Notes: generated by a model from the letters alone, not told the origin. 64,000 bases of DNA from Nitrososphaerota archaeon (GCA_040290255.1 PSMU01000001.1:160001-224000), one strand, 5' to 3'; shown: positions 54,974 through 59,290, counted from the first letter of the stretch. Numbers and translations: made by a program.

Positions 54974-55708
54974 GTGCAGGCGGCCGAGGTGTCGGTGGTG
55001 ATCTCCGAGCGCAGCTTCTCGCCGCGAAGGCCCTATCTTGTGGTGGGGGTGCCCGAGGCGGGGCTGGTGGGCTCCATAGCCGCCTCCTACATGGCCCAGA
55101 GGCTGGCGCTGCCCGAGGTGGGCTACCTGGACTCCGACCTCTTCCCTCCTATCGTCGTAGTTCACGACGGCGAGCCCCGTTCCCCCTTCAGGATCTTCGG
55201 CAGGGAGGACCTAGTAATCGTGAACGCGGAGGTGCCGGCCTCGCCCGAGCTCTACTCGCCCATCGCCCAGGCGCTCACCGCATGGGGGCGGGACCTTCAG
55301 AGCCCGCTGATGATAGGCATGACGGGCCTACCCTCCAGGCAGCGGCTCGAGGTGGAGAGGCCCAGGGTCTTCGCGCTCAGCAGTTCGCCCGAGGTGAGGG
55401 AGAGCTTCAGGAGGGCGGGGAGCGAGGCCTTCCAGGAGGGCTTCTTGGTGGGCTTCTACGCGCAGCTGATGAGGGCCTGCCTTAAGGCCGGCCAGCCTAA
55501 CCTCACGCTCCTGGCCGAATCCCATCTGCAGTTCCCCGACCCGGGGGCGGCGGCGGGCATCGTGGCCCAGCTGAGCGCCTACCTCTCGCTGGGCCTGGAC
55601 GTGAGCCCCCTCATCGAGGAGTCGGAGCAGATAAGGCTTCGCACGAGGGAGCTGATGAACAAGACACTGGAGAGCATGTCGAAGGTCGCCTCCGGACTGT
55701 ACGCATAG
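54974..55708 (+). CDS. PAC2-family proteasome assembly chaperone
   Basis: G.P.AGLVGSIA, FPP......G....P.RI, FPDP.AA, L.EE. Confidence 0.87.
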   Translation: MQAAEVSVVISERSFSPRRPYLVVGVPEAGLVGSIAASYMAQRLALPEVGYLDSDLFPPIVVVHDGEPRSPFRIFGREDLVIVNAEVPASPELYSPIAQALTAWGRDLQSPLMIGMTGLPSRQRLEVERPRVFALSSSPEVRESFRRAGSEAFQEGFLVGFYAQLMRACLKAGQPNLTLLAESHLQFPDPGAAAGIVAQLSAYLSLGLDVSPLIEESEQIRLRTRELMNKTLESMSKVASGLYA

Positions 55709-55712
55709 AGGC

Positions 55713-56126
55713 ATGAGCCAGGAAGAAGGAGCCCCTAGGAGGGTGGAGAGGATGATGGAGGAAGCATATGGGGGCATCAGCTCGGACCTCTGCGAGCCTT
55801 CGGAGGGCTGCCTAAAGCCGCTGTACAGGATAGAGGTCGATGAGAACTACGTCACCGTGACCTTCGATATGCCGGGCGCGAAGAAGGATGAGATAAGGGT
55901 GAGCGCGACCGAGGAGATGCTGGCCGTGGAGGCCAGGCTCGTCGAGCCCGTGGCGCTGATGATGGGCGGTCCGCTTCAGAGAAAGGTGAGCTTCACGAAA
56001 TACATGAGGAGGATAAGGCTGCCGGCGAAGGTCGACCCGGAGAGGGCCTCCGCCACCTACAGCAAGGGCCTGCTGTCGATAAGGTTCCCCTTAGAACGAG
56101 GGGGCAAGGCCATCAGCATCGAGTAG
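55713..56126 (+). CDS. Small heat-shock protein (Hsp20)
   Basis: DMPG..K..I.V, I.LP..VDP....A.Y..GLL.I. Confidence 0.88.
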   Translation: MSQEEGAPRRVERMMEEAYGGISSDLCEPSEGCLKPLYRIEVDENYVTVTFDMPGAKKDEIRVSATEEMLAVEARLVEPVALMMGGPLQRKVSFTKYMRRIRLPAKVDPERASATYSKGLLSIRFPLERGGKAISIE

Positions 56127-56156
56127 CTGGCTTAACGGGAGGCGGGGCGGGGGCAA

Positions 56157-56268
56157 TAGCGGGGGTTCTCCCCTGCGGCTACAGGTGTGGATTTGAATTC
56201 GGCGCCCTAGGCTCCACCGACCTCCGGGTTATGAGCCCGGCGGGGTAACCTGGCTCCCCTACCCCGCT
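56157..56268 (-). tRNA. Initiator tRNA-Met (CAT) with two introns (53/54: 56198-56213; 64/65: 56166-56186)
   Basis: Removing both inserts gives a perfect 75-nt cloverleaf with A1-U72, GGG/CCC anticodon stem, CTCATAA loop and TTCAAAT T loop; both inserts form BHB-like motifs. Confidence 0.93.
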
Positions 56269-56308
56269 GGCGCCCAAGCGGGCCCCCTCTAATATAGGCC
56301 TTTCGGTG

Positions 56309-56788
56309 CTACTCGCTTATCAGGCGCACCCTCCCGTGGTCCATCTCATACCTCAGCAGCAGCGCATACCTGCCCCATTCGACGATCCAGAGGAAGAGCC
56401 TCTCGGGGTCCACGTCGGGCATCTCCCGCCTGAGCAGGGCCAGGAGCAGCTCCTTCTGGACCTCGCCATCCTTCTTGGAGATATAGCCCAGGACCTGCTT
56501 GAAGGGAGGCAGCGCGGCCAGGATCCTGTTGAGGAGCCTCTTCCTGCCCCTCGAGTCACAGGAGAGCAGTTTCTTGCCCTTATCGGTGAGCTCCAGGTCC
56601 CCGTCGCTCACCTTCAGCAGGCCCAGGAACTCGGCCGCGTTCACGACGGGCAGGAGGCTGTCGACGGACATCACCAGGTCGTTGGAGACGAGCGCCATGT
56701 CCACCCTGCCGCCGTAATCCTCGAGCACCTCAAGTAGCCCTATGACCTGGCCGATATGCACGGAGGAGATCGAGGGGATGTCGGCCAT
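56309..56788 (-). CDS. Stand-alone AAA-associated C-terminal domain protein of NitT/TauT-type ABC ATPases
   Basis: GLLE.L...GG..D......D.LLP...AA..LG......GD..LT..G; C-terminal WGRYA.L..Y. Confidence 0.8.
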   Translation of the reverse strand: MADIPSISSVHIGQVIGLLEVLEDYGGRVDMALVSNDLVMSVDSLLPVVNAAEFLGLLKVSDGDLELTDKGKKLLSCDSRGRKRLLNRILAALPPFKQVLGYISKKDGEVQKELLLALLRREMPDVDPERLFLWIVEWGRYALLLRYEMDHGRVRLISE

Positions 56789-56853
56789 CTTGCTGGTTCT
56801 TCCTGATGCTTCGCTTCAGCGCTTAATTAACTTTAACCGTGGCGCGCCCATAG

Positions 56854-57633
56854 CTATACGGGTCCCAGCGCGGGCCCTCCCGCGAGCAGGGAGGTGACCT
56901 CATCGGCGATCGCGTACAGCTCCTGGCTCTTCGGGTCCCTGGGCCTCTTGAGCGGCACGGGCACCTCCTTGAGGATCGTGCCGGGCCTGGGCGTCATGAC
57001 CAGGATGCGGTCGGCCATGTACACGGCCTCCATGATGTTATGTGTCACCATCAGTATGCTGCTGGGGGGCCTGCTCCTATCCTCCCAGAGGTCCAGCACC
57101 TCCTCCCTCAGGTGAGAGGCGGTGAGCACGTCGAGGCTGGAGAAGGGCTCATCCATCAGCAGGACCTCGGGGTCCGAGACGAGCGCCCTAGCCAAGCCCA
57201 CCCTCTGCTTCATGCCCCCCGACAGCTCGCGCGGGTAGGCCTCCTCAAACCCCTCAAGGCCCACGAGCCTTATAGCCCTGAGGGCCCTCTCCCTCCTCTC
57301 CTCCTTGGAGAGGGGCTTGCCCTCCAGGCCCAGCTGCACATTCTCATACACGGTGAGCCAGGGAAAGAGGGCGAAGTTCTGAAAGACGAAGGCCATCTCG
57401 CCGCAGACGCCCTGCACGGGCCTGCCCTTATAGTACACCGCCCCCTCGCTGGGCTGCACCAGCCCTATGATGATCCTGAGCAGCGTGGACTTGCCGCAGC
57501 CCGAGGGCCCTATGATGCAGACGAACTCGTTCTCCTGCACGGCCATGTTCACATGCTCGAGCACCACCAGCGGGGGCTGGCCGGGCCTATAGTAGGCCTT
57601 CGTGACGTTCTCCACCAGCACCAGGGGCGCCAA
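56854..57633 (-). CDS. NitT/TauT-family ABC transporter ATPase
   Basis: GPSGCGKST, FQNFALFPW, YPRELSGGM.QR, MDEPFS.LD, VTH. Confidence 0.92.
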   Translation of the reverse strand: MAPLVLVENVTKAYYRPGQPPLVVLEHVNMAVQENEFVCIIGPSGCGKSTLLRIIIGLVQPSEGAVYYKGRPVQGVCGEMAFVFQNFALFPWLTVYENVQLGLEGKPLSKEERRERALRAIRLVGLEGFEEAYPRELSGGMKQRVGLARALVSDPEVLLMDEPFSSLDVLTASHLREEVLDLWEDRSRPPSSILMVTHNIMEAVYMADRILVMTPRPGTILKEVPVPLKRPRDPKSQELYAIADEVTSLLAGGPALGPV

Positions 57634-57643
57634 GGGCGCTCAC

Positions 57644-59290
57644 CTACGCCTCGAGCTTGTAGCGGGCCAGCGCGAACCTATATATCCGCTTCCATGCCAG
57701 CCTATTCAGCGCCAGCACGGTGAGCACCATGGCCCCAAGGCCGGCGAGCAGCAGGCCGTTGTTGCCCATCTCCAGCGCGGCCGTGCTCAGGAGCGAGCCT
57801 ATGCCCGGCAGGCTCACGACGCCCCTGCCCGTGACGATGTACTCCGATACGATCAGCGTGTTCCATCCTCCTCCCCACGCCGTTATGCTGCCCGTGACCA
57901 GCGAGGGCAGCGAGGCGGGGAGGATGAGCCTGGTCCAGAGCCTGAGCCCCCTGAGCCCATAGACGCTGGAGGCCTCGCGCAGCTCGTTGGGTATGGAGCT
58001 GATGCCGCCCAGCAGGTTGAACAGGATGTACCACTGCATGCCCGTCATCGTCAGCAGCACGGAGACGAGCCAGTAGCCGCCGGGCAGGTAGGGCGCGACC
58101 AGCGTGAACAGCGGAAAGAAGGCCGTGGCGGGGATCGAGGCCAGGACCTCCGCCGTCACGCTGAGCGCGTAGAGTCCCCCGCTGCCCCTTTGGCTCAGCC
58201 AGGCCACGAGCGGGAAGGACCAGGCCAGGCTGAGCGCAAAGGCCGCCGCGAGCCGGGCGAGCGAGTAGAGGATGTAGAGCGGCATCTGGCGCAGCAGGGC
58301 CGAGGCCCTAGGGTCCGCCAGCTGGGCCGCCAGCAGCGAGAGCTGAAGCTTCAGTTGCAGGAGGAGCTGCGGGGCCAGGGCTATGACGAGCGCGGGGAGG
58401 GTTACCGTGGCCCCCAGCGCCAGCGCCCTGAGCAGCCTTACTTGGGGCTGGAGGCGCCCCCAGGAGGGCCTGATCGCCCTCCTGAGCAGCGCCGCGCGCG
58501 GCGGCCCATGCCTCCAGGAGAGGGAGGAGAGGACCCTGAGCCTTGCATGCCTCCTCAGCCAGGCGAAGGCCGAGATGTGGAAGAGGTAATAGCCCGAGGC
58601 CCTTTCGTGGGCCACGGCCTCCTGCACGAACCTTTCCGCATACGCGCGGAGCGGCAGCCAGAAGAGCAGCTCCACGAGGGCCAAGATGAGGAGCAGGGCG
58701 GCGAGCCCCAGCAGGTACCCGCCGAAGTCGCCCGCGAAGGTGGCCTGGGCCAGGTAGCTGCCCAGGCCGGGCAGCCTATAGCTGGTGGAACCGAGCGTGA
58801 TGTATTCGGCGGCGATGAGGAAGAACCATCCGCCGGCCCATGACATAGTGCCGTTGTAGACGAGTTTGGGCACGGCGGCGGGGATGAAGAGCCGGCGCAG
58901 CTTCTGCAGGAGGGAGAGGCGGTAGACCTTTGCGGCATCCTCGAGCTCGGAGGGCAGTGCGCTGACGCCCTCATATACGGCGAAGGCCAGGTTCCAGGCC
59001 ATGGAGGTGAAGATCAGGAAGATGGCCGCCAGCTCGAGCGCCAGGCGCGCGCCCTGAAAGGCGCTGATGAGGAAGAGGATGGCCACGGGAAAGAAGCCCA
59101 GGATGGGCACCGACTGGAGCACGTCCAAGATGGGCAGCAGCACCCTCTCGGCCGCCTTGCTCCTCGCCGCGAGGACGCCGTAGGGGATGGCGAAGGCATA
59201 CGAAAGCGCCAGGCCCGCGAACATCCTGAACAGCGAAAGGGCGGCATAGGCCAGCACGGCGCCCAGCGCCTCCAGCAACTCTAGGGACAA
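57644..59290 (-). CDS. ABC transporter permease with two fused TM domains
   Basis: LDVLQSVPILGF, SWAGGWFF...E, ASIPA...FP, TAWGGGWN..IVSE. Confidence 0.9.
   Translation of the reverse strand: MSLELLEALGAVLAYAALSLFRMFAGLALSYAFAIPYGVLAARSKAAERVLLPILDVLQSVPILGFFPVAILFLISAFQGARLALELAAIFLIFTSMAWNLAFAVYEGVSALPSELEDAAKVYRLSLLQKLRRLFIPAAVPKLVYNGTMSWAGGWFFLIAAEYITLGSTSYRLPGLGSYLAQATFAGDFGGYLLGLAALLLILALVELLFWLPLRAYAERFVQEAVAHERASGYYLFHISAFAWLRRHARLRVLSSLSWRHGPPRAALLRRAIRPSWGRLQPQVRLLRALALGATVTLPALVIALAPQLLLQLKLQLSLLAAQLADPRASALLRQMPLYILYSLARLAAAFALSLAWSFPLVAWLSQRGSGGLYALSVTAEVLASIPATAFFPLFTLVAPYLPGGYWLVSVLLTMTGMQWYILFNLLGGISSIPNELREASSVYGLRGLRLWTRLILPASLPSLVTGSITAWGGGWNTLIVSEYIVTGRGVVSLPGIGSLLSTAALEMGNNGLLLAGLGAMVLTVLALNRLAWKRIYRFALARYKLEA

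Follow-up and report, generated by a model that had tools for sequence, protein, structure and literature searches.

A stretch of 64,000 nucleotides from a Nitrososphaerota archaeon (hereafter the window) contains on its minus strand a locus that our analysis confirms as a real archaeal initiator tRNA-Met (iMet) gene with two short introns, both of them in the T-arm. We regard it as highly probable that this is a functional gene of a thermophilic TACK archaeon, the only iMet gene found for it, and that its transcript would be spliced by way of EndA and RtcB along the pathway proposed below. If this is true, each round of translation initiation in such lineages would depend on two non-canonical splicing events. 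The gene adds a deep-branching, order-level lineage in which initiation would rely on a broad-specificity splicing endonuclease, and it provides an unambiguous example of an intron at position 64/65. The arrangement is uncommon, yet it lies within the well-known class of interrupted tRNA genes and is not categorically unusual; since tRNA genes with several introns and the enzymes that process them have been described at length, no new mechanism is involved.

Anatomy and initiator identity of the gene

The gene and its parts, in the order in which they would be transcribed, are the following.

56157-56268, minus strand: whole gene, 112 nt, consisting of three exons (55, 11 and 9 nt) and two introns
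56268-56214, minus strand: exon 1, 55 nt, tRNA positions 1-53 (acceptor 5′ strand, D-arm, anticodon arm with CAU, variable loop, and T-stem 5′ strand GGTGG)
56213-56198, minus strand: intron 1, 16 nt, at 53/54, with a motif-free boundary and an HBh' motif
56197-56187, minus strand: exon 2, 11 nt, positions 54-64 (T-loop and four bases of the T-stem 3′ strand)
56186-56166, minus strand: intron 2, 21 nt, at 64/65, with a motif-free boundary and a relaxed HBh' motif
56165-56157, minus strand: exon 3, 9 nt, positions 65-73 (position 65, acceptor 3′ strand, and discriminator A73)

The gene does not encode CCA, TTG being found directly 3′ of exon 3, and a canonical 37/38 intron is absent from it as read. 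The boundaries were fixed with a home-made cloverleaf score that sums stem pairs and universal bases, has a maximum of 54, and is blind to splice motifs; the motifs themselves were inspected only once the boundaries had been set. When every single deletion and every pair of 8-39 nt deletions in the 112-nt stretch was scored (n=414,872), the full 54/54 was reached by 1 of the 414,872 variants, the one in which 16 nt are taken out after base 55 and 21 nt after base 82, so that removal of the two introns, and this solution alone, restores a canonical cloverleaf. The runner-up, in which intron 1 is moved by one base and T54 is spoiled, scored 53, and the best single-deletion variants all fell below 40. 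Shifting either splice position alters the spliced product; both boundaries are unambiguous. The minus-strand sequence quoted in a preliminary description of the locus matches exactly on re-reading, and the introns it had placed at 53/54 (16 nt) and 64/65 (21 nt), with none at 37/38, have the same boundaries as the unique top-scoring variant.

Archaeal initiator tRNAs are marked by an A1:U72 pair, by three consecutive G:C pairs at 29-31:39-41, and by the anticodon CAU. The spliced product shows all three marks, and its discriminator is A73; the anticodon stem is CCGGG/CCCGG and the loop CTCATAA. A1:U72 is named as an initiator mark in the abstract of PMC5393177. Exon 1 shares 95% identity with the intron-less iMet genes of two genomes of the same class (G017 and G037), and the BLAST match of relatives' iMet genes ends exactly at the 53/54 junction. 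The initiator identity assigned at the outset is thus upheld by all of the initiator marks as well as by the likeness of exon 1 to iMet genes of the class.

The matching iMet genes come from Nitrososphaerales or Nitrososphaeria genomes, the nearest compared genomes share only the class level with the host, and the host is an order-level lineage that stands alone among the genomes compared. Its closest iMet counterparts are 95-97% identical to the spliced product and have no introns, so that both introns were either gained on the host branch or lost in the others. We compared the two introns by local alignment with 24 other parsed introns of the genome, and the best shuffle p values were 0.023 for intron 1 and 0.05 for intron 2; as neither is significant after 24 comparisons, transposition is unsupported. 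The introns that relatives carry at 52/53 resemble intron 1 only in the bases that pair with exons.

Splice motifs, splicing machinery, and a proposed pathway

In the splicing motif reportedly defined by Marck and Grosjean in 2003, 3-nt bulges lie on opposite strands and are cut after the second bulge base, and a 4-bp helix is said to form between the bases just upstream of each bulge. Two 3-nt bulges and such a helix are found at both introns, at intron 2 in relaxed form. The central helix of intron 1, CGGT/GCCG, is paired at 4/4 positions (3 Watson-Crick pairs and 1 G-U); its bulges are GG^A and AA^T, its inner hairpin is GCC-TAG-GGC, and its BHB tuple (H,h,h') is (4,0,3), that is, no outer helix and an inner helix of 3 bp. 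Intron 2 has a central helix ATCC/GGAG with 3/4 pairs and one A-G mismatch, bulges AC^A and AA^C, an inner hairpin CCTGT-AGCC-GCAGG, and a tuple of (3,0,5), with an outer helix of 0 bp and an inner helix of 5 bp. The central helices and bulges of both introns and the intron 2 hairpin, all of which the preliminary description had given, came out the same in a hand check and in our home-made BHB parser. Neither intron has the strict hBHBh' form, in which h and h' are both at least 2 bp, h being 0 bp in each; because the outer helix is missing, both belong to the relaxed HBh' class. At 400,000 random positions in this genome, equal-or-better motifs arose by chance at rates of 0.0011 for a length of 16 nt and 0.0013 for 21 nt.

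The T-arm region, folded locally to minimum energy, contains the intron 1 motif. For the entire 112-nt RNA, the unconstrained minimum-energy fold, which says little about a GC-rich tRNA, does not reproduce the cloverleaf: it has -49.4 kcal/mol versus -43.6 kcal/mol for the cloverleaf-plus-BHB fold, and its z-score against shuffles is -1.13. With the other three arms (acceptor, D, and anticodon) enforced, the two-motif fold lies 0.1 kcal/mol (37 C) or 0.4 kcal/mol (70 C) above the optimum, and both motifs can coexist because they use different exon bases (48-51 versus 60-62). Once one intron is removed in silico, formation of the T-stem competes with the remaining motif, which is then less stable than the optimum by 1.6-1.8 kcal/mol (37 C) or 0.3-0.4 kcal/mol (70 C); the gap is alike whichever intron goes first, so the order of splicing cannot be derived from it. 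If all four cuts preceded ligation, the 11-nt exon would be held by just four T-stem pairs, an arrangement that looks fragile at high temperature.

A gene of this kind had been expected to need a broad-specificity endonuclease, and the genome does encode a two-subunit EndA with a lysine in the specificity loop. Both paralogues, of 183 and 182 aa, lie outside the window. The 183-aa protein matches the catalytic chain of the Aeropyrum pernix enzyme (3p1z_B) at 7.6e-48, keeps the Tyr, His, and Lys motifs, and aligns without gaps across the Crenarchaea-specific loop, where its K37/K39 fall under K44/R46. Hirata et al. demonstrated that cleavage at non-standard positions and of relaxed motifs depends on this loop and on its K44 (PMC3241643). 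The 182-aa protein has no catalytic His and gives a weak match to the A. pernix beta chain (2.6e-5). The two paralogues, the loop, and the lysine aligned to K44 point to a host endonuclease able to cut relaxed motifs, and an alpha2beta2 heterotetramer, its assembly and activity being inferred, is the natural reading. Such an enzyme would be like A. pernix EndA (alpha2beta2, PDB 3p1z/3ajv) in its alpha subunit, catalytic motifs, loop residues, and second paralogue that lacks the catalytic His, and unlike it in the weak similarity of its beta subunit; the host enzyme is predicted from sequence. Clusters that resemble the alpha subunit are mostly from Nitrososphaerota and Bathyarchaeota. RtcB is also encoded outside the window (566 bits).

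We propose that a precursor of about 112 nt would be transcribed in which the T-arm is unable to form. The 3′ portion of intron 1 would instead base-pair with T-stem bases 48-51, and that of intron 2 with bases 60-62, which would yield two separate HBh' motifs. A heterotetramer-type EndA, made up of a catalytic alpha subunit with the specificity loop and a non-catalytic beta subunit, would then cut in the four 3-nt bulges, RtcB would ligate the 55-, 11-, and 9-nt exons, and CCA would be added later. Judging by its sequence, the iMet transcript is very probably spliced twice. The analysis establishes the anatomy of the gene, the geometry of its motifs, the presence of the enzymes, and the recurrence of the same gene in independent assemblies; transcription, cleavage, and ligation are inferred.

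Non-canonical introns also occur in 9 of the 35 other tRNA genes that we parsed in this genome. The parsed set of 36 consists of 35 of the 37 Rfam matches (two partial matches were left out) and one CAT gene found by BLAST. Fifteen of these genes have no intron, 11 have a canonical 37/38 intron only, and 6 have one non-canonical intron (Gln 24/25, Arg CCT 30/31, Pro GGG 34/35, Ile GAT 43/44, Ala TGC 43/44, and Thr GGT 45/46); the remaining 4 have two introns (Leu CAA 30/31 + 37/38, Ser TGA 29/30 + 37/38, CAT 37/38 + 59/60, and iMet). Position labels inside the anticodon stem are possibly off by a base or two in this list. Two non-canonical introns are found in iMet alone among the 36. The HBh' shape with h = 0 is shared by the introns of Thr GGT, Ile GAT, and Ala TGC, by Ser TGA 29/30, and by both iMet introns; CAT 59/60 has an outer helix. 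Those non-canonical introns that lie outside the anticodon arm are of one form, with no outer helix (CAT 59/60 excepted) and an inner hairpin of 3-6 pairs; they begin with A and end in AA or AG.

Three of the host's other tRNA loci deserve mention in their own right. The second gene with a CAT anticodon, at G000:C3:248640-248741 (+), 24.6 kb past the end of the window, is interrupted by 12 nt at 37/38 and by 16 nt at 59/60, and position 54 of its T-loop is A; it was missed by ARAGORN and by the whole-genome Rfam search. The tRNA-Thr(GGT) gene, outside the window at G000:C3:96181-96270 (+), has a 16-nt intron at 45/46. Its counterpart in Ca. Caldiarchaeum subterraneum is described with an intron at the same position in a passage of PMC3293823, and because isoacceptor and position agree, this is possibly an old shared intron. 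Contig C7 begins with a tRNA 3′ half (G000:C7:1-42), for which the assembly lacks the 5′ part; over the T-arm and acceptor strand it matches a relative's elongator-Met-like gene exactly.

Interrupted initiator tRNA genes in other archaea

Two T-arm introns in an initiator tRNA, one of them at 64/65, had been thought rare, and this judgment needs to be narrowed. T-arm introns in iMet are frequent in the class, 53/54 is a listed position, and both paired T-arm introns and the 64/65 site occur elsewhere; what stands is that the exact pair 53/54 + 64/65 was not found in another gene in the collections searched. The accompanying statement that multi-intron tRNA genes are known in TACK archaea agrees with reviews that, in the sections seen, describe up to three introns per tRNA gene in Crenarchaeota and Thaumarchaeota (PMC4090602, PMC8450103). 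A passage in one of these reviews names 53/54 among the known non-canonical positions (PMC4090602). The position 64/65 is absent from the example lists in the accessible sections of the reviews ("53/54, 56/57, 59/60, etc."), such slash-type labels not being text-searchable. According to a 2026 preprint, introns in the T-arm occur commonly among Asgard archaea, and the standard annotator often overlooks genes that are interrupted more than once.

An uninterrupted iMet query gave a match in 329 of the 401 genomes of the class, a tally that takes in the unpublished G364 and G131. From the class we assembled a sample of 16 loci with broken alignments and 4 earlier loci, chosen for interruption and thus not random, and 17 of the 20 could be parsed. 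The interruptions in these 17 loci are distributed as follows.

37/38 only: 5/17 loci
D-loop intron only: 4/17 loci
52/53 only: 3/17 loci
59/60 only: 3/17 loci
37/38 + 59/60: 1/17 loci
52/53 + 59/60: 1/17 loci

A pattern scan of all species representatives, which called for an iMet anticodon arm and a T-loop followed by a gap of 13-43 nt before the acceptor 3′ strand, returned at least 120 loci; among the matches listed, most were bacterial chance matches and 13 parsed as archaeal iMet. Again among the matches listed, three Nitrososphaerales/Nitrososphaeria MAGs (L124, L130, and L139) have iMet introns at 52/53 + 59/60, two Borrarchaeum MAGs have one at 58/59, two Aenigmatarchaeota MAGs (L106 and L112) have them at 29/30 + 64/65, and one uncultured archaeon (L171) combines a D-loop intron with one at 64/65. 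In L106, L112, and L171 the 64/65 position is set by the motif, with tuples of (3,0,10-11) versus (0-1,0,0-2) at two equivalent shifts. The pattern GGTGG-N-TTCAAATCCAC-N-CCCCCGCTA had 0 matches in genome contigs, a collection from which the host's own records were possibly left out. Two matches to the same pattern in metagenome contigs, where the host's records may likewise be absent, were rejected as chance because the tRNA 5′ half is missing.

The known multi-intron tRNA genes of Thermoproteales, Thaumarchaeota, and Ca. Caldiarchaeum subterraneum are like the gene described here in having short introns at seemingly arbitrary positions with relaxed BHB motifs and, as far as the sections seen of these articles go, in their link with an alpha2beta2-type EndA (PMC4090602, PMC8450103, PMC3293823). 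They differ from it in that this one is an initiator tRNA gene in which both introns are non-canonical and lie in the T-arm. Closer in layout are the iMet genes L124, L130, L139, and L037, which also have two T-arm introns, no canonical one, and HBh'-like motifs, and whose first intron is one base off the 53/54 site and ends in ...CCGAA, as intron 1 does. Their positions, unlike those in the window, are 52/53 + 59/60, their introns are longer (21 and 29-30 nt), their middle exon measures 7 nt rather than 11 nt, and the introns themselves have no sequence likeness to the window's beyond the pairing that the exons force.

The iMet genes L106, L112, and L171 share with intron 2 the 64/65 site, the exon partner of the central helix (positions 59-62), the 3/4 pairing, and an AA bulge, and the L171 intron has a 3′ end, GGAGAA, in common with it. 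They differ in phylum, in the length of the introns (30-32 nt), in inner hairpins of 10-11 pairs, and in the location of the second intron (29/30 or D-loop); moreover, in these three genes the flanking bases repeat and the position is fixed by the motif, whereas in the window gene it is unambiguous. A further likeness is offered by Thermofilum pendens, whose circularly permuted iMet gene (Chan et al. 2011, cited in PMC4090602) is, in the passage concerned, a T-arm disruption that likewise relies on the BHB splicing machinery for its repair. There, the permutation has placed the new ends in the T-arm, whereas the window gene is collinear with two introns.

Within the T-arm, iMet introns were seen at 52/53, 53/54, and 59/60 among Nitrososphaeria, at 58/59 in MAGs of Asgard archaea, and at 64/65 here and in Aenigmatarchaeota. 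We doubt that the iMet T-arm is a recurrent intron site hit independently across archaeal phyla, a generalization that seems unlikely to us at present. A possible reason for such recurrence would be that the invariant T-loop and T-stem supply one strand of the central helix, so that a short insertion with GGA(G)AA or GCCGAA at its end might be spliceable at once. Introns are also said, in work attributed to Randau and Soll in 2008, to interrupt the 3′ half of a tRNA gene, to which integrating elements attach, and iMet T-arm introns might be kept for disrupting such a site.

Independent contigs, detection, and surroundings of the gene

Eight runs were found for 55200-57200, none of them recorded as RNA, and the contigs of four DNA runs (X2, X5, X6, and X7) were compared over 55800-56700. 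An 11.6-kb contig from X2, which belongs to another study, covers the region in full with 3 differences, 0 of them in the gene. X6 and X7, a third source, which have equal sizes and identical contigs and are probably one data set filed twice, yield a 2.3-kb contig with 20 differences in 706 bases (97% identical). In this strain 2 differences touch the gene of 112 nt, at positions 56181 and 56180 of the + strand, and both belong to intron 2: through one of them the closing U-G pair of the inner hairpin becomes C-G, and the other alters the loop's first base. Intron 1 and all 75 exon bases are the same as in the window, and the comparison appears to favour, weakly but consistently, selection on the exons and the hairpin. 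Among the contigs of the four DNA runs there is no intron-less allele or joint.

X5, a soil metagenome, contains fragments of other organisms' iMet genes and no contig over 56157-56213. One of its fragments, at 56214-56269, continues past 53/54 into the T-loop and then into the sequence of the 59/60 intron of L051, a locus from a genome of the same class; with an intron of the L051 type, it points to a second archaeon with an interrupted iMet in that soil metagenome.

The Rfam model RF00005 covers 56157-56268 (-) end to end (model positions 1-71) with 33.9 bits versus a gathering score of 29, a match obtained on a 600-base stretch and in the whole-genome search. The alignment handles the T-arm as a 52-nt insertion, and because of this gap the score is low: it is the third lowest of the 37 tRNA matches in the genome and the lowest among the parsed full-length tRNA genes. 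The concern that standard scanners may miss the gene was justified. An Rfam pass over the whole 64-kb window at the gathering threshold with fast filters did not report it, and ARAGORN had no match in the window and also missed iMet with its intron option on the whole genome. An essential gene thereby escapes both ARAGORN and a default Rfam pass, and calls of completeness or of a "missing tRNA" for such MAGs can therefore be wrong. In intron mode on the whole genome, ARAGORN proposed introns of 1415 nt for a tRNA-Glu, 1993 nt for a tRNA-Ser, and 853 nt for a tRNA-Trp, and several odd intron offsets besides. Wrongly parsed genes that have non-canonical introns, or tRNA halves paired by chance, seem to lie behind these implausible calls, which we disregarded.

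The host genome is a metagenome-assembled one of 1.21 Mb in 9 contigs, 91.27% complete. The preliminary description had advised a check for another iMet gene, and a search of this whole assembly with an uninterrupted gene of a relative found no second locus. One might suppose, given that degree of completeness and an Rfam score near the bottom of the genome's list, that the locus is a decaying or disabled iMet with two T-arm insertions and that a working gene lies in the unassembled ~9%. We think this very unlikely, since the 75 exon bases form a flawless cloverleaf (54/54) with every initiator mark, both insertions have splice motifs at a chance of ~0.1% each, a strain at 97% identity has zero exon changes, and the low score is due to the 52-nt alignment gap.

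We give as little weight to the suggestion that the endonuclease acts on one insertion alone and that the second one, for which intron 2 would be the likeliest candidate, is removed otherwise or retained in an unusual tRNA. The 3/4 pairs in the central helix of intron 2 and its missing outer helix would fit such an account. The same 64/65 geometry, (3,0,10-11), is found, however, in three other archaeal iMet genes, and the introns of L106 and L112 differ by one compensatory and two one-sided pairing-preserving hairpin changes. The Ile GAT 43/44 intron of this genome likewise has a 3/4 central helix, and a 21-nt insertion retained at 64/65 would break the T-stem. That the interrupted structure is an artefact of assembly or binning, as the metagenomic origin and the 9 contigs could suggest, is scarcely credible: independent contigs carry the gene, identical in X2 and with the same structure and two intron changes in X6/X7, and the artefact is therefore refuted as far as contigs can show.

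We return to the reading of the locus as a functional gene with two T-arm introns. It sits in a 182-nt intergenic gap, and no integrase or other mobile-element gene adjoins it. Archaeal TATA boxes lie about 26 nt upstream of the start of transcription. The features around the gene are these.

56290-56296, minus strand: TATA-like box TATATTA, centred ~25 nt upstream of tRNA position 1 and immediately preceded by a purine-rich stretch
56309-59290, minus strand: ABC-transporter operon (permease, ATPase, and a protein with an AAA-associated C-terminal domain), the end of which lies upstream of iMet
55713-56126, plus strand: Hsp20 gene, convergent, downstream of iMet

On the strand opposite the gene, at 56201-56258 (+), the Rfam model RF02803 (PyrR205, a Pyrobaculum H/ACA-like sRNA) gives 24.9 bits versus a gathering score of 35.6, and we rejected a PyrR205 gene at this place as a sub-threshold match to the antisense strand of iMet. 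True PyrR205 genes were found in 8/8 genomes of one genus within a 151-genome sample of the phylum, and they do not lie opposite iMet genes. The complement of PyrR205 resembles the part of a CAU-tRNA that runs from the D-loop to the anticodon (20/25 bases against the window gene and 16/20 against the iMet of its own organism), and because of this resemblance PyrR205 may pair with a Met-type tRNA.
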